This document shows, piece after piece, positions 33,987-62,225 of a DNA stretch of 62,225 nucleotides. A program made the position numbers and the translations under genes. Every line of letters begins with the position of its first letter. Position 1 is the stretch's first letter. Below the pieces are notes generated by a model. It was not told where the DNA came from and did not search any database. It saw nothing but the letters and a program-made list of their open reading frames with translations. The DNA comes from an uncultured Fibrobacteraceae bacterium (GTDB taxonomy: Bacteria > Krumholzibacteriota > Krumholzibacteriia > LZORAL124-64-63), in NCBI GenBank assembly GCA_964549735.1, contig CAZJWO010000004.1, forward strand, positions 1 through 62,225. Reading direction: 5' to 3'.

Positions 33987-36077
33987 ATGGCGTTCGAGCA
34001 GGATAACCGGATCTGCCAGATGGCGGCGTCCTCTGGCCTTGATCGTTTCATGGTGCGCCGTTTCCAGGGCCGCGAGGCCGTGAGCGAACCGTTCCGTTTC
34101 GACCTGGATCTCGTCGCGCCGGATCTGGAGACCGATCTCGCCAAGCTGCTGGGCGCTTCGGTCACCTTCGAGGTGCTGCTGGAATCGGGCGTCCGCCGGC
34201 CGTTCAACGGCGTGGTCGACCAGGTGCGCCAGGTGGAGGCCGACCTCACCGGCGCGGTCTATCGCCTGCGGCTCGTGCCCTGGACCCGGCTGCTCGAGCT
34301 GCACACGAATTGCCGCATCTTCCAGGCTCTGACGGTGCCCGACATCGTCGACAAGGTGCTCGCGGACCATGGCGCCCAGGATGTCGCCTGGCGGCTCGAG
34401 GGGACGTACCAGCCGCGCGTGCTCTGCGTCCAGTACCGCGAGAGCGACTGGGCGTTCATCTCGCGCCTGCTCGAGGACGAGGGCATCGCCTACCACTTCG
34501 AGCACGAGGACGGGCGCCACGTCCTGGTCTTCGGCGACGCGCCCGGACAGCGGCAGGCCTGTCCCGAACAGCCGACGGCGCTCTTCCGCACCGCGCAGGA
34601 CGGCGGTCAGGCCGCCGACGGCAGGCTGCACGACATCGTGCAGGAGTTCCGGCTCGAGCGTTCGCTCGTCACGGGGCGCCGGCTGCTTTCCGACTTCAAC
34701 TACCTCGATCCGGGCGCCAGCCTGCAAGCGGCGGCCGCGGCCGAACTGGCCGTCGCCGCGAGCAAGGAGCTGGAAGACTTCGAGTACCCTGGCGGCTTCG
34801 TCAAGCTGGGCGCCGAGGATGACGCGAAGCTGCCGCTCGGCGAGGGCCTGGCCGCCGTGCGCGCCGAGGCCCTCGACGCGCGCACGCTCCTGGCGCAGGG
34901 CGAGTCGAACTGCCGCGGCCTGCAGGCGGGATGCACCTTCGAGCTGCTGAATCACCTGCGCAAGGACTGCAACATCTCGTGGCTGCTGCTGGCGGTCGAA
35001 CATGCGCTCGACCAGTCGGCGGTGCTGTCGACGACCGCCGGCGGCGAACCGCGCTACGCCAACTCGCTGCGCTGCCTGCCGGCCGCGATCCCGTTCCGGC
35101 CGGCGCGCCACACGCCGCGGCCGGTCGTGCGCGGTCCGCAGACGGCCATCGTGACCGGGCCGTCCGGCGAGGAGATCCACACCGACAAGCACGGCCGCGT
35201 CAAGGTCGCCTTCCACTGGGACCGCTACGCGCCGCGCGACGGCGGCGACACCTGCTGGGTGCGGGTCGCGCACGGCTGGGCGGGCGCGGGATGGGGCCTG
35301 CAGTTCACGCCGCGCATCGGCCAGGAAGTGGTCGTCGAGTTCCTCGAGGGCGATCCCGATCGGCCGCTGATCACCGGCAGCGTCTACAACGGCAAGAACG
35401 CCATCCCCTTCAAGCCGGCGACGCAGAGCGGGATCCGCACGCGCAGCTCCAAGGACGGCAGCGCTGCGAACTGCAACGAGATCCGCTTCGAGGACAAGAA
35501 GGGCAGCGAGGACCTCTTCATCCAGGCCGAACGCACGCAGACCATCAACGTCAAGGCGTCCCAGACCTCGACGATCGGCACCGACCAGAGCCTGAGCGTC
35601 GGCAAGGATCGCAGCGTCAACGTCGAGAAGAACGAAGCGGTCAACATCGGCAGCAACCAGAGCGTGTCGATCGGCAGCAAGCAGAGCGTGTCGGTCGGCG
35701 GCGAACAGAGCGTGTCGGTCGGCAAGAACCGCTCGCTGGCCGTCAGCAAGGACCTCGCGAACTCGGTCGGCGGCAACCAGGCCGACGATGTCGGCGGGGC
35801 GCGCAGCACGGCCGTCGCCAAGGACGACAACCTGAGCGTCGGCGGCGGCTACACGGTCGACGTCAAGAAGGACGGCGCGCTCAAGACGGGCAAGACGCTG
35901 ACGCTCGAGGCCGCCGAGGCCATCACGATCAAGGTCGGCAAGGCCTCGGTCACGCTCAAGAAAGACGGCACGATCACGATCGACGGCAAGGACATCAGCC
36001 TGAAGGGCTCCGGCAAGGTCAACGTCAAGGCCTCGTCGGACGTGACCATCAAGGGTTCGAAGGTCCAGTCGAACTGA
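33987..36077 (+). CDS. vgrG: T6SS spike protein VgrG
   Basis: 'GREAVSEPFRFDL', 'CVQYRESDWAFISRLLEDEGI', 'GPQTAIVTGPSGEEIHTDKHGRVKV', 'PRIGQEVVVEFLEGDPDRP', 'NEIRFEDKKGSE'; gp5-like C-terminal repeats. Confidence 0.96.
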   Translation: MAFEQDNRICQMAASSGLDRFMVRRFQGREAVSEPFRFDLDLVAPDLETDLAKLLGASVTFEVLLESGVRRPFNGVVDQVRQVEADLTGAVYRLRLVPWTRLLELHTNCRIFQALTVPDIVDKVLADHGAQDVAWRLEGTYQPRVLCVQYRESDWAFISRLLEDEGIAYHFEHEDGRHVLVFGDAPGQRQACPEQPTALFRTAQDGGQAADGRLHDIVQEFRLERSLVTGRRLLSDFNYLDPGASLQAAAAAELAVAASKELEDFEYPGGFVKLGAEDDAKLPLGEGLAAVRAEALDARTLLAQGESNCRGLQAGCTFELLNHLRKDCNISWLLLAVEHALDQSAVLSTTAGGEPRYANSLRCLPAAIPFRPARHTPRPVVRGPQTAIVTGPSGEEIHTDKHGRVKVAFHWDRYAPRDGGDTCWVRVAHGWAGAGWGLQFTPRIGQEVVVEFLEGDPDRPLITGSVYNGKNAIPFKPATQSGIRTRSSKDGSAANCNEIRFEDKKGSEDLFIQAERTQTINVKASQTSTIGTDQSLSVGKDRSVNVEKNEAVNIGSNQSVSIGSKQSVSVGGEQSVSVGKNRSLAVSKDLANSVGGNQADDVGGARSTAVAKDDNLSVGGGYTVDVKKDGALKTGKTLTLEAAEAITIKVGKASVTLKKDGTITIDGKDISLKGSGKVNVKASSDVTIKGSKVQSN
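35570..35880 (+). repeat. VgrG gp5-like octapeptide beta-helix repeats (24-bp period)
   Basis: CAGAGCGTGTCG at 35658, 35682 and 35706; peptide units such as SVGKDRSV, SIGSKQSV, SVGGEQSV. Confidence 0.8.
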
Positions 36078-36114
36078 GGCGGCCCGGCGGCCGCCGCGGT
36101 GGGAGAATCGCGGC

Positions 36115-36621
36115 GTGAAGAAGAAGCACGGCAGGGAAGAGATCGCGCGCGAGCCGACCGCCGAGGAACCCGCGCGCGGCGTGCTCGAGGAGATCCTCGC
36201 CACGTCGTCGCCGGGCGTCCGGCGCGTCGGGCTGGTCATCGGGCGGTTCTGCGGTCGCGACGAGGCCGGCGCGCCGCTCGTCGATTTTCCCGGCAACCCG
36301 CTCTCGTCGCCGCTGCCGGCGCGCAGCACGGTCGCACTGAGCGACAGCGACGCCGGCCGCCCGCTCGCGCTGCTCTTCGAGGACGGTCAGCTGCGGCTGC
36401 CGGTCGTCGTGGGCGTACTTCAACCGGACGCGCCGGCCGCGACGGCCACCGTCGACGGTCGCGAGGTCGTGCTGGAGGGCAAGGAGCGCGTCGAGCTGCG
36501 CTGCGGCAAGGCGAAGATCGTCCTGACCAAGGACGGCAAGGTCCTCGTCAAGGGCACCGACATCCTGAGCCGCTCCGAGGGGCCGAACCGTCTGAAGGGC
36601 GCCTCGATCCAGCTCAACTGA
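36115..36621 (+). CDS. DUF6484 family T6SS spike-associated protein
   Basis: 'PLALLFEDGQLRLPVVVG', 'VDGREVVLEGKERVELRCGKAKIVLTKDGKVLVKG'; directly after vgrG. Confidence 0.8.
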   Translation: MKKKHGREEIAREPTAEEPARGVLEEILATSSPGVRRVGLVIGRFCGRDEAGAPLVDFPGNPLSSPLPARSTVALSDSDAGRPLALLFEDGQLRLPVVVGVLQPDAPAATATVDGREVVLEGKERVELRCGKAKIVLTKDGKVLVKGTDILSRSEGPNRLKGASIQLN

Positions 36622-36650
36622 CCCGCCGACCGGCGGCCGGGAGCGCGACC

Positions 36651-37769
36651 GTGAACCTGCCTCGCCCGCAACTCCTGCTGCCGATCCTCGCCCAGCACTT
36701 CACTGAGCTCGATGTCCTGTGGGAGCGGCGCGAGGCTGCCGTCGCTGATCCTGCGGCGACCGCGCGAGAACTGGCCGACATCGAGCGGCGCGCGCAGCGG
36801 CACCTCGAGGGGCTGCTGCTGGGCCAGGGGCACGCGTTGGACCTGGCGCGGCCGGCGCTCCAGGGCGAGGAGCGCGGGGCGGCCACGGCCGCGTCGTTCG
36901 TCATGCTCGACCTCGGCCCTGCCGAACTGCGCGCCGAGTTGATCGCGGCGCTGGCGGCCGCCGGGCCCGAAGCCGCGCACGGCATCCGCATCGCGCTACG
37001 CCACCGCGACGTCGCCGATCTCGAACCGCGGTTGCGGGAGCTGGCCGCCGCGGCCTCGCCGCTGGCGCGCGCCTGCGCCTGCGACGTGCTGGCGTTCCAG
37101 CGCCGCGACCCGGTCGCGTCGGTGCGCGAGCTGCTCGACGTCGACGACGAGGAGATTCGCGCGCTGGCGATCGGCTGTCTCGGGCGGTGGGGCGGACCCT
37201 GGACCGCCGACGATCTGCGCGCGCAGCTCGCCGCGCCCGGCACGGCGCGAGCGCACCGGGCCGCACTGGAGACCTCGGCCCGGGTGGCGCTGCCGGGACT
37301 GCTCGAGATCTGCCGCGAGGCGGCGTACCGCCAGGACGAGCCGTCGCTGGAGGCGTTGCGGTTCCTCGGCGTGATCGGCGATGAGGGTGAGATTCCGCGG
37401 TTGCAGCGGGTCGTGGCAGACGCGGCCGCCGCGGATCAGCCAGATTCGCCCGCACTCGCGCGGGGCGCCGCGGCGCTGGCGGCGCTGGGCGCGCTCGGTT
37501 CGCCGCAGGGCGTGCCGATCCTGCTCGCCGCCCTGGAGAAAACGCTGCTGGCGCACGCGGCCGCGGCCGCGTTCCTGCGCATCACCGGCGCCGCGGACGT
37601 CAAGGGCGAGCCGGTGCCGCCGCCGCCGTCACTGGACGCCGAGGCCGCGGAGTTCTGGGACGAGCATGTCGAGGTCGACCCGGTGCTGGCGCGGCGGTGG
37701 TGGCAGGAGCACGGCGGGCGCTTCGCGCCGGCGGCGCGGTGGCAGGCAGGGGTGGCGGTGGAGGGGTGA
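36651..37769 (+). CDS. TIGR02270 family HEAT-repeat T6SS accessory protein
   Basis: GTG 36651; 'QHFTELDVLWERR...RHLEGL', 'AAAAFLRITGA', 'RRWWQEHGGRF...GV'; gene context. Confidence 0.75.
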   Translation: MNLPRPQLLLPILAQHFTELDVLWERREAAVADPAATARELADIERRAQRHLEGLLLGQGHALDLARPALQGEERGAATAASFVMLDLGPAELRAELIAALAAAGPEAAHGIRIALRHRDVADLEPRLRELAAAASPLARACACDVLAFQRRDPVASVRELLDVDDEEIRALAIGCLGRWGGPWTADDLRAQLAAPGTARAHRAALETSARVALPGLLEICREAAYRQDEPSLEALRFLGVIGDEGEIPRLQRVVADAAAADQPDSPALARGAAALAALGALGSPQGVPILLAALEKTLLAHAAAAAFLRITGAADVKGEPVPPPPSLDAEAAEFWDEHVEVDPVLARRWWQEHGGRFAPAARWQAGVAVEG

Positions 37770-37786
37770 TCGATCGCCACCGAGCG

Positions 37787-38347
37787 TCACTCGGCCAATT
37801 CCTGAGCGGCGAACGCTAGGCCAGTGATGCCCGCAGCCTCGATCGCCCGTACGATCTCCTCATGCGCGACGATCTGCACCGGCATCTCGGCGAGGACGAA
37901 CAAGCGGAAATCGCCGATTTTCGTTTCATCGAGCACGAGCGAGTCGAAGCCGATGATATCCGTCTCGCTACCGGCAGCGTAGATCGCGCGAGACTTGACA
38001 TGGTCCACACAAGCGACCTTGCCAACGACGTTGACGACATGGAACTGCGTGTGGATCTCGCCGGTGACGGTGTTGTGAATCGTGCAAGGAAAGGACTCGA
38101 TGTTGTCGACACCGTTGGCCGCCAAGAGCTGGAGCAGTCTGGTCGAAAGCACTCGCCCCCTACCGGTCAACAGCACGTTGTCGGTCAAGTTGCCTTGTGA
38201 TCGTTCATTCATCTTGATGAGGATCGGCGGGACGCCGCCGGCGATCCGTCCACCGGTGTAGAACGAGAGCCCCAGATCCGGGGGCCACCCGCCGTAGATG
38301 AACGCATCGCCATCGTTCTTGTCGTTTTCCCAAAGATAGTATCGCAT
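37787..38347 (-). CDS. Putative immunity protein (Imm11/DUF1629-like)
   Basis: 'LSTRLLQLL...IESFPCTI...FHVVNVVGKVACVD...LVLDETKI...LFVLAE...IVRAIEAAGITG'; TGATG coupling to the toxin stop. Confidence 0.75.
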   Translation of the reverse strand: MRYYLWENDKNDGDAFIYGGWPPDLGLSFYTGGRIAGGVPPILIKMNERSQGNLTDNVLLTGRGRVLSTRLLQLLAANGVDNIESFPCTIHNTVTGEIHTQFHVVNVVGKVACVDHVKSRAIYAAGSETDIIGFDSLVLDETKIGDFRLFVLAEMPVQIVAHEEIVRAIEAAGITGLAFAAQELAE

Positions 38348-39345
38348 CACGACGCGGAGCCTTTCGAGGCCAGTTTCTCGGCAAGCATGCGCTTGCTCAG
38401 CCAGCGCGAGAAGGGTTGATTGGGGTTCTCGCCGTCATCGAGGGCTCGCAGGGCTTCTGCGATATAGTGGTCCCAGCGCGGAAAACCTGAAGGCATCAGA
38501 TTGGCTTTGTTCAACGCCGCTTCATGGTACTTCCTCATGAGATCGAATCCATCGCCCTTGACCTTCGTCTTCAGCACGCCAGGCGGCCGCTGGGCGGTCT
38601 TGTCCTTGCCGTAGCCGCCGACATCGCCGAGTGTCATCTTGGCCAGCTTCGTTAAATACCAGCGCCAGCCCGTGAGCTTGCGGCGGATCAGATCGGAGAC
38701 TTGCTGCAGGTCCGCAATGACCCTTCGCTGCGCCTCCGTCTCGCCGCGAGGATCGGCAGAACAGTAGCTGTAGCAGCGCTCCTGCAACTGGGCCAGCAGC
38801 GGGGAGGTCTTCGCGTCGAGATCGTATTCGAGCGGCGCCGGGTCGCTCCACGCATGACTGCTGGCGTGGTGCTGCAGATCGTGGCAGACGATGTCCACGA
38901 TAAATCCGGGCACGTGAAAGCCGTTTTCCTTGCAGTTGATATCGTAGCCCATCAGGATCGCGTTGTGGACGAGTTCGGGGAACTCGCTCTCGCTGAAGAC
39001 GTCGCAACTGATCAGATGGTGGCCTTCCGTGTAATACTCGGGGTACGGATACGCGCTGGCGGGTTTGCCGCGGCTGATATGGTAGTCCTTGTTGGCGTGC
39101 AGGGAGTCGACGCCTGGCCCTTCGATGATCCACGGCACGAGCTTGTCGTTGTCCTTCCACCGCCCGGGCGCCTTGGCGTCGCGGTCGGCCTTGCCCCCCT
39201 TGGGATAGTCCGGCTTCTTCAAGTGCCATTTCGCTTCGTGCGGACCCTTCTGGCCGGGACCGCACCGCCATTCGCACGCGTGCAATTCGGACGACGGCGC
39301 AGGCAGCGCGAGGGGCACCGCAACAGATTCACCGACCTGTGTCAC
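38347..39345 (-). CDS. Putative T6SS nuclease effector, AHH (HNH/EndoVII) family
   Basis: 'EGHHLISC', 'GYDINCKENG', 'QHHASSH' match the AHH pattern; GTG start with GGAGG RBS; lies between PAAR and an immunity-like gene. Confidence 0.75.
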   Translation of the reverse strand: MTQVGESVAVPLALPAPSSELHACEWRCGPGQKGPHEAKWHLKKPDYPKGGKADRDAKAPGRWKDNDKLVPWIIEGPGVDSLHANKDYHISRGKPASAYPYPEYYTEGHHLISCDVFSESEFPELVHNAILMGYDINCKENGFHVPGFIVDIVCHDLQHHASSHAWSDPAPLEYDLDAKTSPLLAQLQERCYSYCSADPRGETEAQRRVIADLQQVSDLIRRKLTGWRWYLTKLAKMTLGDVGGYGKDKTAQRPPGVLKTKVKGDGFDLMRKYHEAALNKANLMPSGFPRWDHYIAEALRALDDGENPNQPFSRWLSKRMLAEKLASKGSAS

Positions 39346-39372
39346 TGGAGTTCCTCCCGTTCCGCGCTCCGC

Positions 39373-39756
39373 TCACCCCGGGATGTTCTTCTCATTGTGA
39401 AACAACGGATCGCCCATCCGACAGACGTTCTTCCCCTCGAACTTCACGTCGAACGAGTACATCATGAACTCGCAGGCGCCCTTGAACTTGCTGCTCGCCA
39501 CGCCGCCGCCGGCCGAGCCCGCCTCGTCCCCGGCCGACATCTGGTACTTGGCGCCCTTGACCATGGGCATCGCGCCGTCGGTCTTGACCTTCGACGGGCC
39601 GCCGCTGGTGTCCGACGCCTTGCCGATGTTCGGGTAGGGGATGGGGACCGGTCCGCCCGGCGTGGGGGTCTTGCAGACGTCGGGAAAGACCACGCTCATC
39701 CCACCGCTCTGCTTGTGCACGATGCCGCGGCCGTTGGCGAATGTCGACTGTCCCAT
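39373..39756 (-). CDS. PAAR-like DUF4150 spike tip protein
   Basis: 'FPDVCKTPTPGGPVPIPYPNIG', 'SAGDEAGS.GGV.S', 'DVKFEGKNVCRMGD...HN'. Confidence 0.92.
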   Translation of the reverse strand: MGQSTFANGRGIVHKQSGGMSVVFPDVCKTPTPGGPVPIPYPNIGKASDTSGGPSKVKTDGAMPMVKGAKYQMSAGDEAGSAGGGVASSKFKGACEFMMYSFDVKFEGKNVCRMGDPLFHNEKNIPG

Positions 39757-39839: not shown

Positions 39840-40934
39840 TCAACCCGCCACCGCGTCGACCAACGCGGCCGCCCGCCGGGGGCCGTCCGACGCGCACCAG
39901 ACCAGCGCCGGCGCGGCGACGCGCTGCTTCCGGATGCCGAGCGCCGCCAGCCCCAGCATGACCGGCCCCAGGGCCGCGCCGAGGTCGCCGCAGCAGTCGG
40001 CGGGATGCTCGACGACCACGCCGGGATCCAGCTCGCGGTGCGAGCGCAAGCTGGCGACCCCGTACTCCTTGGCGCCGAAGCTCTCGCCGTTCAGCCCGGC
40101 GAAGATGGTCGCCACCGGCGCACGGAGCAGGCCGGGCGCGGTCAACACCGCGGCGAACGCCGCGGCCAGCCCGTCTCCCCGGTACGGCTCCTTGCTGTAA
40201 CGGTGTCCCGCCTCGTCGGCCGCGCCGACCGCCAGCACCCGCGCGAGAGGCTCGAGGTCCGCCAGCGGCGGCGGCGCCCCCGGCCGGCCGAGCAGGACCA
40301 CGCCGGCGCCCTCCCCGGGGATGAACCCGTCCATGACCTGCGCGCTCTGGATGCGCCGCTCGCGGTCCAGGGTGGCCAGCAGCATGAGGTCCAGGTAGCT
40401 GTCGACGCCGCCGGCGAGCGCGTAGTCACCCGCACCCGACGCCAGGAATTCCAGCGCCTTGGCGACTGCCATCAGTCCTGCTGCCCGGCCTCCCGGCACG
40501 AGCCGGCTGCGCGCGAGATCGAAGCGCACCCCCGCCGGCTCGAGTTGGGCGGCCAGGTGCGCCAGGAACGCTGCTGCGACCGGGTCGGCCAGCTCCGGGT
40601 GCTTCTCCGGCGTGGCCAGGAAGAGTGGCATCGGATCGCCCCGCCCGGTGTTCTGCAGGCCGTCGAGGACCTCCCCGACAGCCGGCGCCGCCAGCCGCAA
40701 GAGACGGCGCTGGCGGCTGGTCAAACCCGACACCGCCGCAACGTCCGGCACGAGCGGCGGCAGCGCATCCTCCTGCAGAAGCGCCATCACCAGAGGCTCG
40801 TGACGAGCGTCCATGACCGGCGACTCGGCGAAACCCGCCACGCCGGCCTGCACCGACGCGAAGGTCTGGGCCGCGCCCTGGCCCACGGCCGTGATCATAC
40901 CCGCGCGGTAGATGATCGCACCCGGTGTCGCCAT
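39840..40934 (-). CDS. Thiolase/ketoacyl-synthase-like T6SS accessory protein (PRK06147-like)
   Basis: Start ATG 40934; 'GMITAVG', 'ALAGGVDSYL', 'FIPGEGAG', 'GDLGAALG'; lies between DUF2169 and DUF4150. Confidence 0.85.
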   Translation of the reverse strand: MATPGAIIYRAGMITAVGQGAAQTFASVQAGVAGFAESPVMDARHEPLVMALLQEDALPPLVPDVAAVSGLTSRQRRLLRLAAPAVGEVLDGLQNTGRGDPMPLFLATPEKHPELADPVAAAFLAHLAAQLEPAGVRFDLARSRLVPGGRAAGLMAVAKALEFLASGAGDYALAGGVDSYLDLMLLATLDRERRIQSAQVMDGFIPGEGAGVVLLGRPGAPPPLADLEPLARVLAVGAADEAGHRYSKEPYRGDGLAAAFAAVLTAPGLLRAPVATIFAGLNGESFGAKEYGVASLRSHRELDPGVVVEHPADCCGDLGAALGPVMLGLAALGIRKQRVAAPALVWCASDGPRRAAALVDAVAG

Positions 40935-41947
40935 CACGCGGGCCTTTCGTCGAGCACCATTTCGCGCAGCTTGATCTCGACCCGCTGCAACCGGAGCGCC
41001 TTCTTGTCGCAGGGCAGGGCCGCCCGCCAGAGCATCGACAATCGCTCGTCGTCCGGCTCGACGAGCACGGTCTCGAGATGACACGACGGTCGCTCGCTGG
41101 CGCCGTCCAGCCTGACCGCGATGTCCAGCCCGCATCGCGGCAGCCGGAAGCTAAGCCGGCCGCGGGGTGACAGATGGATCAATTCGACCGGCTCGCCGCC
41201 CAGGAGGTAGCCGTCGGCCACGAGGTCCGGGTGCGCGGCGTTGAAGAACCGCGGATCGAAATCGGCCGGCAGATAGGGCGCCCGCTCGCGCTCCCACGCG
41301 GCGTCGTAGGTGCCGGCGAAGTCGCGTCGCGGTTTCCAGTTGGGCGCGACGAAACCGTAGCCGGCGGGACGCTCGGATTGCGACGGGTCGAGGAGATTGG
41401 GCGCGAGCGTGCCCTTGAGCTCCTTGCGCCGCTTCTCGGCGCGAAAACCACGGCCGACCGGATTCGCCTCCTCGGCCTTGATCTTGCCCTTCTCGGCATC
41501 GATCACGTGCACGCCGCCGAACGCGCGCTCGTAGACCAGCGGCATGCTCGTGAACGGCTGCGCCGCGTCCAGAGCGGCGCCCAGGACGCGGCCGTTGTAG
41601 AGGCGATCGCCCACGACGCGCACGCGCTTACGCAAGCGGCCGACCGTCAGCTGCGTGTCCAGCGTCGTGACCGGCCGTCGATCCGGCGCATGGGCGCTGC
41701 CGACAAGGACGACATCGGTCGCCGGTTTCGCCAGATGGATGTCGGCGGCATACCGGAGGCTGGACGCGCCGGGTTCGCCCCAGGACTCGTCGGCGAGCAG
41801 CAGCGGCCGCTGCTGTTCCGCGACCGCGAGGCTGTCGCCGAGGGTGAACGTCGCCTTGACGACCACATGGAGGGCGTCGACACCTCGCACGTCCGGCAAG
41901 AGGCTCAGCGCGGCCACGAAGGGCGTTTCATTGGCCAACTGCAGCAT
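40934..41947 (-). CDS. DUF2169 T6SS adaptor/chaperone
   Basis: 'VVVKATF', 'KPATDVVLVGSA', 'PLVYERAFGG', 'NPVGRG', 'PAGYGFVAPNWKPR...AGTYD', 'FFNAAHPDL', 'LETVLVEPD'. Confidence 0.93.
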   Translation of the reverse strand: MLQLANETPFVAALSLLPDVRGVDALHVVVKATFTLGDSLAVAEQQRPLLLADESWGEPGASSLRYAADIHLAKPATDVVLVGSAHAPDRRPVTTLDTQLTVGRLRKRVRVVGDRLYNGRVLGAALDAAQPFTSMPLVYERAFGGVHVIDAEKGKIKAEEANPVGRGFRAEKRRKELKGTLAPNLLDPSQSERPAGYGFVAPNWKPRRDFAGTYDAAWERERAPYLPADFDPRFFNAAHPDLVADGYLLGGEPVELIHLSPRGRLSFRLPRCGLDIAVRLDGASERPSCHLETVLVEPDDERLSMLWRAALPCDKKALRLQRVEIKLREMVLDERPA

Positions 41948-42139: not shown

Positions 42140-42152
42140 CACCTCTCTTGTT

Positions 42153-53298: not shown

Positions 53299-56115
53299 AT
53301 GCGTGATGGTCGGTTGTTGATCGAGTCGGCACCGTTCTGGTGCGCGCTGGCGGCGGTATGCTGCCTGGCCTGGTCGCCCGCGGCCGGCGCGGCGTCCGAC
53401 GCCCCCCTGTTCGAGACGCTGCAAGCGGCCGCTGCCAGCGGCGACGACCCGCCGGCGCTCGCGGCCGCGGAAGAGGACGCCGGCTGGTGGGACGGCTTCG
53501 CGCCGGCGCCTGATGGCCAGGGGTTGCGCAGCGGCGCTCTGCGGGGTCGCTGCGCCAGCCTCCTCGTCCATGACGGCAAGCTCTACGCCCACGGCGTCTT
53601 CGACAACGCGGGCGGACAGACGGTCCAGAACATCGCGGCGTTCGACGGCCGCAGCTGGACCGCGCTGCCTGGCGTCGGCCCGCCCCGTTACGATCTCCTG
53701 GGTCCGACGCTGGCCGTGTTCGATGGCAAGCTGGTCGTGGCCGAGTTTTCGGGCGGCGTCACCGCGGTACGGCGCCTCGACGGCACGAACTGGACCGCGC
53801 TCGGCACGGCGCCCATCGGGGCCGTCCAGCATCTGCACAGCTTCACCGTGGCCGGACAGGAACGATTGTACCTCGTGGTGAACGACGCTTTGGATGTGAC
53901 CAGCCAGGGGCGGGTCTACCGGTGGAATCCGCAGACGCTGCTCTGGCAGGTCCAGGGGACGGGCCTGCCTGTCGGTGTGATCTTCGCGATGGCCGAGCAC
54001 GACGGCGACCTCTACGTGACGGTCTATGGTCAGGCCGCCGGCATGGTCTGGCGCCTGCGCGGCGACGAGCCCGGGGGCGACTGGGCCAGCGTCTACGCGA
54101 GCGCCGAGATGCGGCCGATCCACCTGCTCAGCCATCAGGGATCACTCTATACCTCGGGCCTGGCCAACAACGCGGGCCTTCTGCTGCGCTACAACCCGAG
54201 CGGCGTCCCGCAGTGGCAGAACGTGGGGGCCACCGTGACCGGTGCAGGGCACGTGTATCACATGGCGAGCTGGCAGGAGCGCATCGTCCTGGTGGGGAAC
54301 TTCCCGGGGCTTGGCGCCGCGACGTCGCGCAACGTCGCCTACTGGCAGGACGGCACGGTCCACGCGATGGGCTCCGGACTGACGTCGGCGACCGAGAACG
54401 ATCCCTTCACGGTCGCCGTGTTCGGCGGCGACGTCTATGTCGCCGGTCGTTTCGGCGACGCCGGCGGCCGCGCGTCCTCTGGCATCGCCCGCTGGCGCGA
54501 CCTCGACGATCCCCTGGCCACTCCGACGATCAACCCGACCGTTCCGGCCACGCTCTTCGCCGGCGAGCCCGTGAACATCGCGGCGACGATCGCCTCATAT
54601 CAGACCGTGCGCGGCGTCCGCCTGGGGTACCGCACCTTCGATCAGGACGCCTACAGCTTCCGGCCCATGGCGCTGCAGACGGGCAGCAACGACGTCTACC
54701 GCGCGACGATCCCCGGCGGCGCGGTCACGACGCACGGGCTCCAGCATTTCGTCGAGGTGGAGACCGACCTGGGCACCTTCACGATGCCGCCCGACGCCGC
54801 GCAGGCCGCCGCGTACGTGGGGACCGAGGTCGGTGGCCGCATCATCATGCCGCTGGCGGGGCGCTACGAACTCATCGGCATCCCGTTCGTGCCGACGGGC
54901 ACCATGTCGCAGATCTTCGAGGGCGTCATGGGCGAGTACAAGCCGTCGCGCTGGCGTCTGGAGCGCTGGGATCCCGAGACCGAGACGTATCTGCCGTTCC
55001 CGCAGGTACCGCCCGCCGACCCCGGCACCGGTTACTTCCTGATCCAGCGCGACGAGCAGGACGTGCTGGTCACCGGCGTTTCGTCCAGCACGGTGGGCGG
55101 CGCCACTATCCCGCTGGAGCCGGGTTGGAACATGATCTCCACGCCGTACCAGCTCTTCATCCCCTGGGCCCAGGTGGTGCGGCCGGCCGGGGTCGAGAAC
55201 CAGCTCATCACCCGCGCCAACGACGAGTACGTGGTTGTTTCGCCGGCAGTCATGGCCCCGGGGACCGGCTACTTCGTCTATCACGCCGGCGCGAACCCGG
55301 TGACGCTCAGGGTGCCGACCGTCAGCGCCGGCAAAGCCGCCGGCGATCGCCAGCCCGGCAGCGCGGCCGAGGCAGAACTCGCGGACCTCGCCGGCTGCGC
55401 CTGGACGATCCGCATCGCCGCGAGCCAGGGCGGACGGCACGACCTGATCAAGACGATCGGTGCGCTCGCGCCCGGAGCCGAAGGTCCCGGCAACCTGCAC
55501 CAGCCGCCCGCGCTGCCGCACGATCTGGCGGTGTGGCTGGAGCACGAGAGCGCCGCCGGCGTGCACCGGCTGCGGCGCGATCTGCGTTCCTTCGACCAGG
55601 GCGGCGTCTGGGACCTCGTGGTGCGCCCCGCGGCCGGCGGCGGCCCCGTGACGCTGACCTTCGCCGGGCTCGACGAGGTGCCCGCCGATCTGCAGATCGC
55701 GCTCGCCGCGCCGCACGGCACGGTCGACCTGCGCCGCGCCGGCGCGACCTGGCAGAGCGCGGCCGACGGCGAGACGCATCTGCGCCTGGTGGTCGGTTCG
55801 CAGGATCTCGTCGAACAGGCCGCGGGCTCGTTGCCGCAGCCGTTCGCGCTGCTGCCGGCCTATCCGAATCCGTCCAATCCGTCAACGAGGGTGACCTTCG
55901 CGTTGCCACGCGCGACCGCGGTCCGCCTGTCCGTGTACGACCTCGCCGGCCGGCGCGTGCGCACGCTGCTCGACGACGTGCGCGCTCCTGGCCGCCACGC
56001 GATCGAGTGGGACGGCGCCGACGACACCGGCCGCGGCCTCGCTTCTGGTATCTACGTGTTGCGGTTGCAGGCCGGCGAGCTGAGCCAGACGCGCAAGTTG
56101 ACGCTGGTTCGCTGA
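53299..56115 (+). CDS. Secreted beta-propeller-repeat protein with C-terminal FlgD Ig-like domain
   Basis: ATG 53299 after GGAGG; signal peptide; repeats 'LYAHGVFDNAGG...IAAFDG', 'VYVAGRFGDAGG...IARW'; C-terminal 'AYPNPSNP...VYDLAGRRVRTL...WDG...ASGIYVLRL'. Confidence 0.8.
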   Translation: MRDGRLLIESAPFWCALAAVCCLAWSPAAGAASDAPLFETLQAAAASGDDPPALAAAEEDAGWWDGFAPAPDGQGLRSGALRGRCASLLVHDGKLYAHGVFDNAGGQTVQNIAAFDGRSWTALPGVGPPRYDLLGPTLAVFDGKLVVAEFSGGVTAVRRLDGTNWTALGTAPIGAVQHLHSFTVAGQERLYLVVNDALDVTSQGRVYRWNPQTLLWQVQGTGLPVGVIFAMAEHDGDLYVTVYGQAAGMVWRLRGDEPGGDWASVYASAEMRPIHLLSHQGSLYTSGLANNAGLLLRYNPSGVPQWQNVGATVTGAGHVYHMASWQERIVLVGNFPGLGAATSRNVAYWQDGTVHAMGSGLTSATENDPFTVAVFGGDVYVAGRFGDAGGRASSGIARWRDLDDPLATPTINPTVPATLFAGEPVNIAATIASYQTVRGVRLGYRTFDQDAYSFRPMALQTGSNDVYRATIPGGAVTTHGLQHFVEVETDLGTFTMPPDAAQAAAYVGTEVGGRIIMPLAGRYELIGIPFVPTGTMSQIFEGVMGEYKPSRWRLERWDPETETYLPFPQVPPADPGTGYFLIQRDEQDVLVTGVSSSTVGGATIPLEPGWNMISTPYQLFIPWAQVVRPAGVENQLITRANDEYVVVSPAVMAPGTGYFVYHAGANPVTLRVPTVSAGKAAGDRQPGSAAEAELADLAGCAWTIRIAASQGGRHDLIKTIGALAPGAEGPGNLHQPPALPHDLAVWLEHESAAGVHRLRRDLRSFDQGGVWDLVVRPAAGGGPVTLTFAGLDEVPADLQIALAAPHGTVDLRRAGATWQSAADGETHLRLVVGSQDLVEQAAGSLPQPFALLPAYPNPSNPSTRVTFALPRATAVRLSVYDLAGRRVRTLLDDVRAPGRHAIEWDGADDTGRGLASGIYVLRLQAGELSQTRKLTLVR

Positions 56116-56172: not shown

Positions 56173-57054
56173 ATGTTCTTCAAGAAGCGGAACCAGAGCG
56201 TGCGCAAGTGTCCCAGCGGGCACATCATGGATCCCGACTGGGACACTTGCCCCTACTGTGCGGGCGAGCAGTCCTCGGTCTTCCTGGACGAGAGCCGCGC
56301 CGATCAACGATCGGCCTCGCCGCGGGGCGATCTGCCGCCCGCGCCCCCGCTGCCGCCGCTGCCGCCGCCGCCGTCACCCTCGCCGGTCGCCTCGCACCGC
56401 GCGGCGCCGCCTCCGCCTCCATCCCCCGCGACGAGCGATCCCGACGTGACGCAGATCAGCCGCCGTGGTCCGCCGCCGCCGCCGCCGCCGCCGCCCGCAA
56501 GGGGTTCTCCGCCGCCTGTCGCGCCGTATGCGCCGTTGCCGCCCACGGCACCTGCCGCCGGATCCGGGCCGCCGCCGCTGGTCGAGTTCACCGATGCCCG
56601 CGGTCGGCCGGCGTCGCCGCCGCTGCCGCCGCCTGCCGCCACGCCCCATCTGCCGCCAACGGCGCCTTCCGGCAGGTCCGCGCCGCAGGTGCCTGGCAGC
56701 CTGGATGAACCGACGCGCATCCTGAGCGCCGCGACCGGCGGCGGCCTGCTGGTCGCCTGGCTCGTGGCGGTTTCGGGGCCCTGGCGTGGCCAGGATTTCC
56801 GGATCCAGCCCGGCGGCGCCCGTGTCGGCCGGCTCCCCGCCTGCGGGATCTGCCTGCCGCAAGGGCAGGACCTCGGGCTCTCGAAAGAGCATGCGGAGGT
56901 GCGCATCGCGGCCGGCACCTGCGTCCTGGTCGACTTGGGTTCGGCCAACGGCACCTTCGTCAACGACGAGCGCATAACCGAACGGGCTCTTCAGGATGGC
57001 GACCGGGTGCGGTTCGGCCTGCTCGAGTTCGTCTACAAGTGTCTGGTGCTATGA
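56173..57054 (+). CDS. Zn-ribbon-like / Pro-rich / FHA domain protein
   Basis: 'CPSGHIMDPDWDTCPYC'; long poly-Pro linker; FHA 'VGR...SKEHA...DLGSANGTFVN'. Confidence 0.85.
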   Translation: MFFKKRNQSVRKCPSGHIMDPDWDTCPYCAGEQSSVFLDESRADQRSASPRGDLPPAPPLPPLPPPPSPSPVASHRAAPPPPPSPATSDPDVTQISRRGPPPPPPPPPARGSPPPVAPYAPLPPTAPAAGSGPPPLVEFTDARGRPASPPLPPPAATPHLPPTAPSGRSAPQVPGSLDEPTRILSAATGGGLLVAWLVAVSGPWRGQDFRIQPGGARVGRLPACGICLPQGQDLGLSKEHAEVRIAAGTCVLVDLGSANGTFVNDERITERALQDGDRVRFGLLEFVYKCLVL

Positions 57055-58778
57055 CCGCGCGCGCCGACGATGCGACGCGCTCCGGCCCGTCGCGAACGGA
57101 TCTGGAGCTGGTCTCCCTGGGCGCGGCGCCCGCGATCGCCCGCTGCCTGCCGGGCGCGGAGCTCGTCCTGGGGCGCGACCCGTCGTGCGACGTGCGGCTG
57201 GACGATGCCACGGTCAGCCGGCGCCACACCCGTTTGGCCTGGCAGGACGGCGCCTGGTGGGTGCAGGACCTCGGTTCGGGCAACGGCACCCTGCTGGCCG
57301 GCGCGCGCGTGCAGCAAGCGGTGCTCAGCGACGGCGCGACGTTGCAGGTCGGTCCGTTCCAGTGGGTCGTGCGCCTGCGCCGCCCGCCGGCGCGCTGGCG
57401 CGCCGCCGACGGCTGGCTGGTCTGGCGGCTCTCCGCGCTCGAGCCGCGGGCGGGCGCGGTCGACCGCCTGCTCTGGAAGCGTCAGACCGTGCTCGGGCGC
57501 AGCGCCACGGCCGATGTCGTGGTCGGCGGCGACCAGGTCTCGGCGCTGCACGCGAAGCTCCAGTACGGCGCCGCCGGCCTCGGCGTGACCGATCTCGGCA
57601 GCGCCAACGGGACCCGCGTCAACGGCGCGCCGGTGCGGGGGGCCCGCGTGCAGGACGGCGACCGCCTGGAGATCGCCGACCTGCCGTTCCGCTTGCGCCG
57701 CACCTGGGTGCCCGTGCCGGCGGTCATGGGCGCGGCGGGCGTGTTCGCGGCGCTGCTGCTGGTGCTGGCGCTGCTGCCGACGGCCGGCCGCCGCACGCTC
57801 GAGCGGGACCGCTGGTGGACGCGCGAGATGTACCTCGAGCAGGCCCAGCGCAGCCTCACCGAAGCGGTCGACGCCTGGCAGCGGCCGCAGCCGGCGCGCG
57901 AGCTGGCCCGCGCACGCTTCGACATCGCGTTGCGTTCCCTGGCCGCCGTCGACTACCTGCCCATGCACGCGCCCGCCGGAAGCGACATCGCCGCCGCCCT
58001 GCAGCGCGCGGAACTGGAGTTCGGCGGTCCGCTGCAGGGCCGCGACCTCTACGCCATCCTGCAGGAGCTCGAGGATGCGCCGCAGCCGCCGCCGGTCGCC
58101 GAGACGGCGGCGCCGAGCGCGCCGCCTCCATATTCGCTGGACGCGGAGCTGAGCCTGATCATGGCCGAATTCGGCATCGACGTCGCCACCCAGCCGATGC
58201 CGCCCGACCTGGTGGCGGCCATCGAACGCTTCGTCGACTACTGGTCGAACGAGAAACGCGGCTTCACGCGCCGCGCCTGGCGGCGCGGCCAGCAGCATCT
58301 GCCCATGATCGAGGACACGCTGCGGCGTTACCGTCTGCCGCCGGTCTTCAGCTACCTGCCGTTCATCGAGAGCCGTTTCGAGGTCGACATCCTGAGCGAG
58401 GCCGGCGCCCGCGGCCTGTGGCAATTCATGCCCGCCACGGCGCGCCAATACGGCCTGCGAGTCGACGCCGCGGTCGACGAGCGCATCGACCCCGTGAAAT
58501 CGACCGAGGCCGCGTGCCAGTATATCGAGTTCCTGCTGAACGCGTTCGGCGCCAACTCGTTCATGAGCGCGATCGCCGCCTACAACAAGGGCGAGCACGG
58601 CATCCTGCGCTGCCTGGGCCGTGCCGCGGACTGGCGCTCGCGCTGGAATTTCTGGGACATCGCCACGCGCGGCGACTGCCTCAAGCAGGAGACGATCGAA
58701 TACGTCCCGAAGTTCCTCGCCGCGGCCGTCGTCCTGCGGCGGCCCGATGTCTTCGTGCTGGAGGAGGGGGGCGTATGA
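57051..58778 (+). CDS. Tandem FHA-FHA-TM-lytic transglycosylase (SLT/MltD-like) protein
   Basis: Two FHA ('LGR...VSRRH...GSGNG'; 'LGR...VSALH...GSANG'); TM 'GVFAALLLVLALL'; SLT 'FIES', 'GARGLWQFMPATA', 'AAYNKGE'; ATGA overlap with the upstream gene. Confidence 0.88.
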   Translation: MTARADDATRSGPSRTDLELVSLGAAPAIARCLPGAELVLGRDPSCDVRLDDATVSRRHTRLAWQDGAWWVQDLGSGNGTLLAGARVQQAVLSDGATLQVGPFQWVVRLRRPPARWRAADGWLVWRLSALEPRAGAVDRLLWKRQTVLGRSATADVVVGGDQVSALHAKLQYGAAGLGVTDLGSANGTRVNGAPVRGARVQDGDRLEIADLPFRLRRTWVPVPAVMGAAGVFAALLLVLALLPTAGRRTLERDRWWTREMYLEQAQRSLTEAVDAWQRPQPARELARARFDIALRSLAAVDYLPMHAPAGSDIAAALQRAELEFGGPLQGRDLYAILQELEDAPQPPPVAETAAPSAPPPYSLDAELSLIMAEFGIDVATQPMPPDLVAAIERFVDYWSNEKRGFTRRAWRRGQQHLPMIEDTLRRYRLPPVFSYLPFIESRFEVDILSEAGARGLWQFMPATARQYGLRVDAAVDERIDPVKSTEAACQYIEFLLNAFGANSFMSAIAAYNKGEHGILRCLGRAADWRSRWNFWDIATRGDCLKQETIEYVPKFLAAAVVLRRPDVFVLEEGGV

Positions 58779-60049
58779 GCGCGCCTGCCATCCGCCTGCT
58801 CGCCGCGCAGGCGGCGCTCGCCGCCGGCCTCGCGGTGGCGGTCGGGCCGGCTGTCGCCGCGGACGCCGTGCACCGGCTGCACATCGAACCTGGCTTCCGC
58901 ATGCCGCAGGCCCAGCTGCTGATCCCAGTCACCGCCGTGAACGAGCAGGGCGCGTTCGTGCTCCTTTCGCGCGCCGCGCCGACCTGCCAGATCGCGGGGG
59001 AGCCGGTCGAGATCGTCGATCTCGTCGAGCCCGTCGCGACCGCCGTGCTGATCATCAGCGATCAGTTCCTTGTGGCGCCAGCATGGTCCTCGACGCCGCT
59101 GGTGGCGCCCGCGTCGCCCCACTGGCTTGGGATCTGGGACGCATCCCAGGAGCCGATCCCGCACGTCGCGCTGCAGCCGGCCGCCGGCCTGGCTCCGGCG
59201 GCGATGCCGGCGCCCCACGTGCCGCGCCTCTGGGACGCGCTGCTGGCCGGGATCCGCGAACTCGCCGTCTTGCCGTCGATACCGGTCCGCCGGGTCATCC
59301 TGGTCATCGGCGACCTGCGCGAAGAAGACGCCAGCGCGCACCCGATGGCCGCCTGCCTCGAGGCGGCCGTCGAGGTCGCGATCCCGATCCATGCCGTGGT
59401 CATCGACGGTGCCGACCCGCAGGCGGTCGAGCGCCTGCGCCATCTGGCGGAGGCGACCGGCGGCAGCCTGCAGCGGGAGGTCTCGGCGGTGCCGGCCCTG
59501 CTCGCGGGGTTGGCCCGGATCGGGGCGGCCGGCGGACTGATCGTGCACGATCCCGGCGGGCCGCTGCCCCTGGCGGCGACCGTGACGGCGCACACGGGCG
59601 CACCGGCCGCGCACACGCGGATCGTCGCCCGGCCGCGCGGCCGCTACACGCCGGGCGCGGGCCTGGTGACGGCCGCGGCGGTGCTGCTGGCCGCCGCCGG
59701 CGGGTGGACGGCCTGGCGGCTGTGGCGGCGGCGTCCGGTGGGCTATCTGGTCGGCGCCGATCCGGCGCATCCCTGGTGTCGCGCGATACCGGCCGCCGGC
59801 CTGACCATCGGCCGCACGCCGAACAACGGCCTGCACCTGGCAGAGAACCGGGTTTCCAAGCATCATGCCCTCGTGCGCTGGCATCGGGGGCAGATCCAGC
59901 TCATCGACCTGCGGTCGACCAACGGCACGCAGATCAACGACCGGCCGGTGCGATCGGCCGCGCTCGCCGAGGGCGACACGATCGTGTTCGGCGACGCGGT
60001 GACGGTGCAGTTCCGGCGGCGCGCGCCGCAGTCGCGAGATAGGACATAG
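58775..60049 (+). CDS. Signal peptide / VWA-like / TM / FHA membrane protein
   Basis: Start ATG 58775 (ATGA overlap); signal peptide; VWA-like 'RRVILVIGD...IPIHAVVI...LRHLAEATGG'; TM followed by RRR; FHA 'IGR...VSKHH...STNGT'. Confidence 0.75.
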   Translation: MSAPAIRLLAAQAALAAGLAVAVGPAVAADAVHRLHIEPGFRMPQAQLLIPVTAVNEQGAFVLLSRAAPTCQIAGEPVEIVDLVEPVATAVLIISDQFLVAPAWSSTPLVAPASPHWLGIWDASQEPIPHVALQPAAGLAPAAMPAPHVPRLWDALLAGIRELAVLPSIPVRRVILVIGDLREEDASAHPMAACLEAAVEVAIPIHAVVIDGADPQAVERLRHLAEATGGSLQREVSAVPALLAGLARIGAAGGLIVHDPGGPLPLAATVTAHTGAPAAHTRIVARPRGRYTPGAGLVTAAAVLLAAAGGWTAWRLWRRRPVGYLVGADPAHPWCRAIPAAGLTIGRTPNNGLHLAENRVSKHHALVRWHRGQIQLIDLRSTNGTQINDRPVRSAALAEGDTIVFGDAVTVQFRRRAPQSRDRT

Positions 60050-60132
60050 GCGGCGGGCGAAAAAAGTGGCATGATGCGACCGGCAAGGTCCGCTTGCCGG
60101 CGCGCCGGATCAACGGAAGAGGACACAGCACC

Positions 60133-60900
60133 GTGGAGCAGGGATATCCCACCATCTTGCCGGAGCTCAACCTCGTGCACGCGTACGTGTCCGATCCGGG
60201 CTGCAAGCGCGAGAGGAACGAGGACGCGGCGGGATTCTTCGCCGGTCCCGACGGCAGCGGGGCCTACCTCATGGTGGTGGCCGACGGCGTCGGCGGGACG
60301 CTGGCCGGCGAGGTCGCCAGCCAGCTCGCCGTCGAGATGATCGGCCAGCGGTTCTTCGCCGCCGGCGTGCCGGAGCGGCCCGCGCACGCCCTGAAGGACG
60401 CCATCACGGCGGCCAACGAGGCGATCCGCGCGGCGGCCGCCCGCGAACCCCGTCACGCCGGCATGGCCACGACGTGCACGGCGGCCTACCTGTGCGGCCA
60501 GGATCTGGTGCTGGGACACATCGGCGACTGCCGCGCCTACCTCATCGAGCAGGGCCAGATCCGCAGGCTGACCCATGACCATTCCGCCGCCGCCGAGATG
60601 CAGCGCCGCGGCGAGTACGTGCCGCCGGACCGCCAGGATCTCGCCAACACCTTGACGCGCTGGCTGGGCACCGAGCCGGTGGTCGAGATCGATGTCCATC
60701 AGCCCATCGTCTTCGCCGCCGGCGCCACGCTCGTGCTCTGCTCCGACGGCCTGGTCAAGGTCGTCGACGAGGCCGAGATCGTCCGCGTCGTATCGTTGCA
60801 TCTGCCCGGGGGCGCCTGCCGCAAGCTGGTCGACCTGGCGCGGGAGCGCGGCGGGCCCGACAACATCACGGTCCACGTGGCGCGCTACTGCCGGTCGTGA
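60133..60900 (+). CDS. PP2C (Stp1/PppA-like) Ser/Thr phosphatase
   Basis: 'SDPGCKRERNED', 'VADGVGG', 'GHIGDCRAY', 'LCSDGL', 'GGPDNIT'; GTG start after AGAGGA. Confidence 0.93.
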   Translation: MEQGYPTILPELNLVHAYVSDPGCKRERNEDAAGFFAGPDGSGAYLMVVADGVGGTLAGEVASQLAVEMIGQRFFAAGVPERPAHALKDAITAANEAIRAAAAREPRHAGMATTCTAAYLCGQDLVLGHIGDCRAYLIEQGQIRRLTHDHSAAAEMQRRGEYVPPDRQDLANTLTRWLGTEPVVEIDVHQPIVFAAGATLVLCSDGLVKVVDEAEIVRVVSLHLPGGACRKLVDLARERGGPDNITVHVARYCRS

Positions 60901-60919
60901 ACGAGGAGTCGAAAGAGCG

Positions 60920-62225
60920 ATGAAACAGACGTTCCACGGCTTCGAGATCCGCGAGAAGATCGGCTCGGGCGGCATGTCCACGGTCTATCGCGGCGTTCAC
61001 GCCACGCTCGGCTACCCGGTGGCGATCAAGGTGCTGCACCCGGCTCTGGCGGGCGACGAGAACTTCATCGCCCGCTTCGAGCGCGAGGCCCGCAGCGCGT
61101 CCTCGCTGCGCTCGAACAACATCGCGACGGTCATCGATTTCGGGACCGAGAACGACATCTACTTCATCGTCATGGAGTACGTCGACGGGCCGGATCTCAG
61201 CCAGCTGCTCGGCCAGACGCAGGACTCGCAGCAAGCGCCGCGCGGCTTGCCCGCCGAGATCGCGCTGATCCTGCTGGAGGAGACGGCGTACGGCCTGCAG
61301 GAGGCCCACCACCAGAACATCATCCACCGCGACGTGAAGCCCAGCAACATCCTGCTGAACAAGAAGGGCGAGGTCAAGATCGCCGACTTCGGCCTGGCGC
61401 GCGACACCAGCAAGGTCTCGCTGGGCAGGCGCGACCTGACGATGCCGGGCATGGTCGTCGGCACGCCGTCGTACATGTCGCCGGAACAGGCGGTGGGCAA
61501 GGAGAACATCGACCAGTGCACCGACGTCTTCAGCCTCGGCGTGGTGGCGTACCAGCTGCTGTCCGGTCGCAAGCCGTTCGTGGGGACCACGCCGGCCGAG
61601 GTCCAGGAGAACATCATCAACCAGCCGCCGCCGCCGCTCGAGTATCGCGAGTGCCCGCTGCGGACCGCGGAGATCGATCAGCTCCTGGCCAAGATGCTGG
61701 CGAAGGATCCGTCGCGGCGCTACCAGAACATGGAGCAGGTGCGGCGCGGCATCCAGGCCGCCATCGACAGCATCGACGTGGCGGGCAACGTGGGGCGCTA
61801 CCGGCGCGAGTACCTCAAGCGCTTCGTGGCCGATCCGCGCCTGTTCGCCGAGGAGATGCGGCAGCAGAACATCGCCGACCGGCTCAAGCGCGGCTATCAC
61901 TTCAAGGAGATGGGCCTGTCGAACATCGGCGACGCGGTGCAGGAGTTCTCCGTCGTCCTGGCGCTCGATCCCGAGAACCAGAAAGCCGCCGCCGCGCTCG
62001 CCGAGCTGCAGCGCAAGGCCGAGGAGTCGGGCGTGGCGTTCCCGGCGTTCGGGCAGCGGGCGCGACCCGACGCCGCCGACGTGACGCGGATCGTGGCGGC
62101 GGATGACCGCGCCGCCCGCGCCGCCCCGGCCGCCGAGCCCACGCGCATCGTCGGCGGCCAGCCCGCCGCGCCGTCGCCGCCGCGCCGGGCCGCCAGGGCG
62201 GCGGGTCCGCGAGCTGGCGAAGCGG
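60920..62225 (+). CDS. Hanks-type Ser/Thr protein kinase with TPR-like segment, 3'-truncated by the window edge
   Basis: Not in the ORF track (no stop). Hand translation: 'KIGSGGMSTVY', 'VAIKVLH', 'FEREA', 'IHRDVKPSNILL', 'KIADFGLA', 'GTPSYMSPEQ', 'DVFSLG', then 'DAVQEFSVVLALDPENQKA'. Confidence 0.93.
   Translation, partial: MKQTFHGFEIREKIGSGGMSTVYRGVHATLGYPVAIKVLHPALAGDENFIARFEREARSASSLRSNNIATVIDFGTENDIYFIVMEYVDGPDLSQLLGQTQDSQQAPRGLPAEIALILLEETAYGLQEAHHQNIIHRDVKPSNILLNKKGEVKIADFGLARDTSKVSLGRRDLTMPGMVVGTPSYMSPEQAVGKENIDQCTDVFSLGVVAYQLLSGRKPFVGTTPAEVQENIINQPPPPLEYRECPLRTAEIDQLLAKMLAKDPSRRYQNMEQVRRGIQAAIDSIDVAGNVGRYRREYLKRFVADPRLFAEEMRQQNIADRLKRGYHFKEMGLSNIGDAVQEFSVVLALDPENQKAAAALAELQRKAEESGVAFPAFGQRARPDAADVTRIVAADDRAARAAPAAEPTRIVGGQPAAPSPPRRAARAAGPRAGEA

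Follow-up and report, generated by a model that had tools for sequence, protein, structure and literature searches.

A complete T6SS-i gene cluster in a Krumholzibacteriota genome, divided by the assembly over three contigs

The window analysed here is the whole of contig C4 (CAZJWO010000004.1; 62,225 bp, G+C ~70%) from the genome of an uncultured bacterium that is labelled Fibrobacteraceae and placed by GTDB in the Krumholzibacteriota (assembly GCA_964549735.1; 3.68 Mb in 208 contigs, estimated to be ~97% complete with ~2% contamination). From position 33987 to its 3' end, the window carries genes of a type VI secretion system (T6SS), and this region is almost certainly the first ~28 kb of a contiguous, complete and canonical T6SS-i cluster of ~38 kb, which the assembler split into C4 and two further contigs, C193 and C82. 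Reading frames were fixed by a codon-position GC scan and genes were named with Pfam and NCBIfam profiles; single values in brackets below are E-values.

The cluster opens on the plus strand with vgrG, a DUF6484 gene and a gene for a HEAT-repeat protein, followed by a divergent operon on the minus strand that comprises DUF2169, thiolase-like, PAAR-like, candidate toxin and Imm11 genes. The core genes then run along the plus strand: tssA (ImpA_N, 364 aa; 42396–43490; PF06812, 3.1e-29), tssB for the small sheath subunit (43602–44126; T6SS_VipA, 4.5e-57), tssC for the large one (44126–45613; VipB, 2.5e-133; VipB_2, 7e-43), hcp (tssD; 45744–46232; T6SS_HCP, 2.8e-43), tagJ (impE; 46268–47077; ImpE, 6.7e-31, and TPR_19), the gp25-like tssE (47125–47631; GPW_gp25, 4.7e-15), tssF (47624–49477; T6SS_TssF, 1.3e-201), tssG (49441–50499; T6SS_TssG, 1.3e-81) and, directly 3' of tssG, clpV (tssH; 50522–53218; AAA, AAA_lid_9, AAA_2 and ClpB_D2-small), which has the two-AAA architecture of the ClpB type. 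The product of vgrG (TssI, 696 aa; 33987–36077) matches Phage_GPD (1.9e-87), Phage_base_V and Gp5_trimer_C. Among solved chains, TssC is nearest to 9n4v_A (6.5e-175), followed by 5n8n_B (7.4e-145) and 5urw, which are T6SS-i sheaths. The Pfam matches confirm the gene content proposed in a sequence-only reading of this DNA, which had recognized vgrG, PAAR, tssA, tssB, tssC, hcp, tagJ, tssE, tssF, tssG and clpV and had placed genes unrelated to T6SS at the left boundary; the latter encode an adenylate kinase, an XRE/AbiEii pair and a thioesterase.

Between clpV and the contig end, again on the plus strand, lies a block of six genes. The first (53299–56115) encodes a 938-aa secreted protein with a signal peptide and matches to FlgD_ig (5.2e-9), Por_Secre_tail and TIGR04183 (2.8e-7); its matches to Kelch-type repeats are weak and below the cut-off. 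The protein ends in a type-A C-terminal sorting domain of the type IX secretion system (T9SS) kind, and its C-terminal ~90 aa (about 55830–56115) recur in similar form at over 80 genomic sites, pointing to a large T9SS-type secretome. A homologue adjoins the T6SS cluster of a distant metagenome-assembled genome (MAG; L019), so that the 938-aa gene could belong with the T6SS instead of having been inserted there by chance.

Three FHA-domain proteins follow. In the first (293 aa; 56173–57054; FHA, 1.8e-16), a Cys-rich N-terminus and a Pro-rich linker precede a C-terminal FHA domain. Hydropathy analysis gave no convincing transmembrane (TM) helix for this protein: its sole hydrophobic stretch, residues 183–201, is weak and runs into the FHA fold, with a YscD-type match beginning at residue 201, and the protein is probably cytoplasmic. 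The second (575 aa; 57051–58778) combines two FHA domains (3.8e-34) with a lytic transglycosylase domain (SLT, PF01464, 2.9e-20), separated by a single strong TM helix at residues 222–251 by hydropathy, a layout that would leave the FHA domains in the cytoplasm and the transglycosylase domain in the periplasm. The FIES, GLWQFM and AYNKGE motifs of this FHA-SLT protein are invariant in three orthologues, the catalytic Glu-Ser motif of SLT family 1 is kept, and the FHA-FHA-TM-SLT architecture is common to about 84 database proteins. The third (424 aa; 58775–60049) has an N-terminal signal or anchor sequence, a ~260-aa periplasmic domain, a hydrophobic stretch and a C-terminal FHA domain (residues 344–406, 2.1e-16), with hydropathy peaks at residues 5 and 295; a search of its periplasmic part for a vWA or other known domain, down to E ≤ 5, returned nothing credible. 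The block closes with genes for a PppA-like PP2C phosphatase (60133–60900; PP2C_2, 6.3e-19; PP2C, 9.6e-15) and a PpkA-like Ser/Thr kinase (60920–62225; Pkinase, 5e-50), the latter cut by the contig end after 435 of 806 codons, with its frame still open. TM-containing FHA proteins, a transglycosylase fusion, PP2C and a kinase had been described in the sequence-only reading as standing immediately after clpV; the block itself holds up, but the 938-aa gene intervenes and a membrane anchor is apparent in just two of the three FHA proteins.

Profiles of TssK, DotU (TssL), IcmF (TssM) and TssJ have no match anywhere in the 62,225-base window, as the same reading had noted, and because the window is the entire contig C4, this result holds for a single contig. 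Genome-wide profile searches, with curated cut-offs and with Pfam and NCBIfam equivalog models as confirmation, recovered exactly one each of tssJ, tssK, tssL and tssM, all above the cut-offs. These genes are located on C193 and C82 and begin ~1.2 kb beyond the end of C4, in the same orientation. The first open reading frame (ORF) of C193 (42–1133) has no start codon and encodes a TM helix and then a PEGA-domain match, which is what the receptor kinase truncated on C4 would need. It is followed by a gene for a small protein (C193:1137–1718) with an N-terminal signal or anchor, a TPR-like middle part and a C-terminal TM helix, and by tssJ (C193:1694–2242; PF12790, 4.9e-20, profile match at 1868–2206; TIGR03352, 73.7 bits against a cut-off of 31.6). 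The tssK gene is itself divided between C193:2271–3284 and C82:3–353: its profile match is split into C193:2328–3284 (profile positions 1–318) and C82:6–344 (318–428), PF05936 is covered over positions 1–316 and 318–428, and TIGR03353 scores 283 bits against 100. On C82, tssL (dotU; 383–1081; DotU, 4e-44, profile match at 422–1024; TIGR03349, 142.7 bits against 90) precedes tssM (icmF; 1101–4652, within an open frame of 1287 codons), which contains all four IcmF domains and scores 540 bits against 388 with TIGR03348. Genes of housekeeping type, for AhpC and EamA, come after tssM, and the cluster therefore ends there.

The three contigs are spanned by a single one in an independent assembly. 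A database search yielded a 289,888-bp contig (ENA ERZ16299682 NODE_31, locus L024) that encodes the FHA-SLT protein of the window letter for letter. In blastn alignments, C4 47051–62225 corresponds to L024 1–15175 (99.91% identity), C193 39–3283 to L024 15193–18437 (99.91%) and C82 1–3298 to L024 18431–21728 (99.97%), with 17 nt, corresponding to ~seven residues in the linker of the kinase, missing where C4 meets C193, and an overlap of 7 nt between C193 and C82. The genes called on L024 encode, in order, TagJ, TssE, TssF, TssG, ClpV, the 938-aa protein, FHA (293 aa), FHA-FHA-SLT (575 aa), FHA (424 aa) and PP2C (255 aa), and onward the full kinase (806 aa; 13870–16290; kinase domain, TM helix and PEGA region), a 189-aa protein (16306–16875), TssJ (165 aa), an intact TssK (453 aa), TssL (232 aa) and TssM (1181 aa). 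All T6SS-i components, namely the sheath, the tube and spike, TssE, TssF and TssG, TssK, TssJ, TssL and TssM, TssA and ClpV, are present in one physically linked cluster. The order from tssA onward is tssA-tssB-tssC-hcp-tagJ-tssE-tssF-tssG-clpV, the 938-aa gene, FHA, FHA-FHA-TM-SLT, TM-FHA, PP2C, the kinase gene, the gene for the 189-aa TPR-like protein and tssJ-tssK-tssL-tssM. The cluster is a complete T6SS-i that also includes a putative threonine-phosphorylation module and encodes an FHA-SLT protein of its own.

Illumina adapter sequence is visible at both ends of C193 and at the 5' end of C4 (window 1–47; C193 1–41 and 3284–3328), which accounts for the C193 breaks at least. Adapter-like sequence occurs in 104 of the 208 contigs, nearly always in a terminal position; evidently, untrimmed reads went into the assembly and ended many contigs. 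With the adapter removed, the 3' end of C193 reads ...CTCTTGAC and C82 starts with TCTTGAC.... Exact end overlaps of at least 15 nt were sought among C4, C193, C82 and all other contigs and none was found; the real overlap of C193 and C82 measures 7 nt and the adapter masks the C193 ends. Where a contig ends, a missing gene proves nothing, all the more so when half of the contigs of an assembly end in adapter.

The kinase gene is also broken elsewhere. In independent assemblies, contigs likewise end within this gene: a Logan contig (L026, at a contig end of SRR10178538) ~426 codons into it, compared with 435 codons for C4, and a contig of a same-genus MAG (L013, at the end of G003:C7) in its C-terminal half. 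The kinase region may be a recurrent weak spot of assembly. When translated, the adapters read ...DRKSTRLNSSH and VTGVQTCALPIS, and could pass for protein ends.

The association between the FHA module and the membrane-complex genes extends to relatives of the Krumholzibacteriota genome. Single contigs of a same-genus (G008) and a same-family (G012) genome carry genes for FHA, FHA-FHA-SLT, FHA, PP2C, kinase, small protein, TssJ, TssK, TssL and TssM in this order. In a pattern scan of GTDB representative genomes, ten loci were found to encode an FHA-SLT protein, under labels that include Candidatus Krumholzibacteria/Krumholzibacteriia, "Gemmatimonadota" and "Fibrobacteraceae", among others. At every scanned locus with enough flanking sequence, the FHA module adjoins tssJKLM, sometimes in divergent orientation. 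The two co-occur in eight of the eight relatives examined, one of which is labelled Gemmatimonadota and one Fibrobacteraceae; in none of them does the module stand in for the canonical membrane complex, beside which it is always found. Gene order is kept across several genera at 40–85% protein identity, and all relatives retain the small protein of 189 or 194 aa at the position separating the kinase from tssJ. Its match to the TssQ family is sub-threshold (22 bits against a cut-off of 65), and a search for a family down to E ≤ 5 gave nothing credible; the protein may partner the kinase in the envelope.

These data bear directly on the two explanations offered in the sequence-only reading for the missing genes, that they lie beyond position 62225 or elsewhere, or that the system is a variant docking through a different envelope complex. 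The former is what we find, on C193 and C82 and contiguously on L024. The latter would be a T6SS devoid of TssJ, TssK, TssL and TssM, with its baseplate docked to the envelope by way of the SLT fusion and the FHA proteins anchored in the membrane, a view that could be suggested by the TM segments of two FHA proteins and by the lack of the four genes in the 62-kb window. However, a single small gene separates the kinase from tssJ, tssK, tssL and tssM, which start ~1.2 kb beyond the end of C4, with the same orientation and within the same genome; they are contiguous with the window genes on a 99.9%-identical 290-kb contig; and the FHA module occurs together with them in all eight relatives, which refutes the variant. 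The sequence-only reading had itself proposed a genome-wide profile search and had held that tssK, tssL or tssM downstream of the kinase or elsewhere in the genome would refute it; all four genes were found downstream of the kinase. The supposed T6SS lacking TssJLM and TssK in a new lineage is an assembly artefact, and is not to be carried forward.

It is hardly credible, too, that the genes on C193 and C82 come from a misbinned organism or a second T6SS and that the window cluster is incomplete. The ~2% estimated contamination and the small size of C193 (3.3 kb) leave some room for such a mixture, but the contig borders cut single genes, the kinase gene being shared precisely by C4 and C193 and tssK by C193 and C82. 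All three pieces align at 99.9% identity to a single contig from an independent assembly, and their codon-position GC matches that of the window. Furthermore, tblastn searches with every cluster protein showed each T6SS core gene to be single-copy in the genome, so tssJKLM cannot belong to a second T6SS. A complete yet silent or decaying relic cluster is very unlikely, given that the reading frames of all 13 core genes, and those of the accessory genes, are intact and show coding-type GC content at third codon positions (0.85–0.97), that their order is conserved across genera at the identities given above, and that a cognate toxin/immunity pair, in which the toxin is a candidate, is present. 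Nothing in the data speaks against the contiguity or completeness of the canonical T6SS-i cluster.

By analogy with well-studied members of the family, TssJ, TssL and TssM would form the envelope-spanning membrane complex, which TssK would join to the baseplate of TssE, TssF, TssG and VgrG, and TssA would start polymerization of the Hcp tube and the TssBC sheath. Contraction of the sheath would fire the VgrG/PAAR-like spike with DUF2169-adapted cargo, presumably the 332-aa candidate toxin, against which Imm11 would protect the producer as its immunity partner, and the sheath would be recycled by ClpV, probably with the help of TagJ. The threonine-phosphorylation pathway is represented in the cluster by a transmembrane Hanks-type kinase and a PP2C phosphatase, and the kinase, PP2C and FHA genes together would constitute a switch of the Pseudomonas aeruginosa H1 or Agrobacterium type that gates assembly. 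Judging from its domain order, the FHA-FHA-TM-SLT protein most likely makes a local opening in the peptidoglycan through which the membrane complex is inserted, a step that this phospho-switch would control. Several points weigh against this picture. None of the three FHA proteins is a full-length TagH/Fha1 (TIGR03354 scores of 26, 67 and 36 bits against 120, covering the FHA domain only), and a genome-wide search for TagF (PF09867) gave no match at E ≤ 1, so that the phosphorylation circuit may not follow the wiring known from Pseudomonas; the SLT fusion and the proteins of 938 and 189 aa have putative roles that are read from position and domains. More speculatively, and with less than even chances, the FHA, FHA-FHA-TM-SLT, TM-FHA, PP2C and kinase genes might represent an undescribed accessory module, in which phosphothreonines made by the kinase would recruit the lytic transglycosylase through its FHA domains, and the cell wall would be opened at the site and time of TssJLM insertion. 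The T9SS-tagged 938-aa surface protein could be an outer sensor of the phospho-circuit.

The cluster resembles the H1-T6SS of P. aeruginosa in having all 13 core genes including tssJLM and tssK, together with TagJ/ImpE and ClpV, in encoding a transmembrane Hanks-type kinase, a PP2C phosphatase and FHA proteins, and in the proximity of its TssC to the sheath chain 5n8n_B. It differs in having three FHA proteins with four FHA domains in place of a single Fha1, in the lack of a TagF match in the genome-wide search and of a clear TagQRST set, the TssQ-like match described above being the only one, and in the SLT fusion and T9SS-tagged secreted protein embedded in the cluster. Beyond its TM helix, the kinase has a PEGA-type match, whereas PpkA carries a vWA domain in this position. 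The accessory factors of T6SS, including the PpkA/PppA/Fha1 threonine-phosphorylation pathway, have been reviewed recently (2026; PMC13584744). In Agrobacterium tumefaciens, TssL is phosphorylated by PpkA and phospho-TssL is bound by Fha (PMC13584744); here, as in that bacterium, the kinase and FHA proteins are encoded beside tssL and tssM, an analogy that suggests docking of an FHA domain on a phosphorylated subunit of the membrane complex. Unlike in A. tumefaciens, two of the FHA proteins appear to be membrane-anchored, one of them with a peptidoglycan hydrolase domain.

Two known cell-wall enzymes of T6SS offer a comparison for the latter: TagX, an L,D-endopeptidase that remodels the cell wall for the Acinetobacter T6SS, and MltE, a housekeeping lytic transglycosylase recruited by TssM in enteroaggregative Escherichia coli (PMC13584744). 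Like these, the FHA-SLT protein is predicted to expose a peptidoglycan-cleaving domain in the periplasm, anchored to the inner membrane, and it is encoded beside the membrane-complex genes. It is, in contrast to MltE, encoded inside the locus; it is an SLT-family transglycosylase, whereas TagX is a VanY-type peptidase; and its enzymatic domain, unlike either, is fused to two cytoplasmic FHA domains. Such a fusion is not among the accessory genes listed in the review (PMC13584744). The FHA–lytic transglycosylase fusion is a candidate for phospho-regulated opening of the cell wall, and the FHA-SLT accessory module is the only, mildly new element of the cluster.

The host appears to belong to the Fibrobacteres–Chlorobi–Bacteroidetes (FCB) group and uses many T9SS-type sorting domains, features shared with the Bacteroidota that carry T6SS-iii. 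The best-known T6SS of the FCB group is of the iii type, which lacks TssA, TssJ, TssL and TssM; the cluster described here possesses all four of these T6SS-i hallmarks and is therefore not a T6SS-iii. No paper pairing Krumholzibacteria with type VI secretion was found in the literature searched, and this is apparently the first T6SS-i noted in the Krumholzibacteriota.

The left part of the cluster is devoted to the spike and its cargo. The vgrG gene is followed on the plus strand by the genes for a 168-aa DUF6484 protein (36115–36621; PF20093, 4.3e-22), a spike-associated accessory that recurs beside DUF2169 in relatives and on contig C41, and for a TIGR02270-like HEAT-repeat protein (36651–37769; HEAT_2, 1.3e-6; TIGR02270, 97.7 bits, below the cut-off of 206.8). 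The divergent minus-strand operon begins with the DUF2169 effector adaptor (337 aa; 40934–41947; PF09937, 9.9e-98), followed by a thiolase/ketoacyl-synthase-like accessory (365 aa; 39840–40937; partial ketoacyl-synt match, 6.5e-8), a PAAR-like spike tip (Tox-PAAR-like/DUF4150, 127 aa; 39373–39756; PF13665, 3.3e-40), the candidate effector toxin (332 aa; 38347–39345) and an Imm11-family immunity protein (187 aa; 37787–38350; PF07791, 1e-13), for which codon-position GC indicates coding on the minus strand. The 332-aa protein has no Pfam match down to E ≤ 5 and is proposed as a toxin from its gene position only, between the PAAR-like gene and Imm11; its gene lies in a stretch of lower GC (0.64 compared with ~0.70). 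By eye, its GHHLIS motif and a second His-rich stretch, HDLQHHASSH, recall HNH nuclease toxins of the AHH/GHH type.

A second island at ~6.9–9.6 kb of contig C41 consists of DUF6484, DUF2169, thiolase-like and Tox-PAAR-like genes, the thiolase-like gene thus having a paralogue accompanied by DUF2169, and is 35–46% identical to the set in the window. This orphan effector-loading island has no core T6SS genes nearby by tblastn, and probably serves the single T6SS as an auxiliary effector module. In the window, immediately to the left of the T6SS genes, a gene for an XRE-HTH/DUF6922 protein is paired with one for an AbiEii nucleotidyltransferase toxin (32084–33231) in an arrangement resembling a type IV toxin–antitoxin system. 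Further upstream, the segment 25021–28370 contains a candidate 787-aa ORF with matches to the phosphate acetyl/butyryl-transferase and acetate kinase families, followed by a second PTA_PTB gene.

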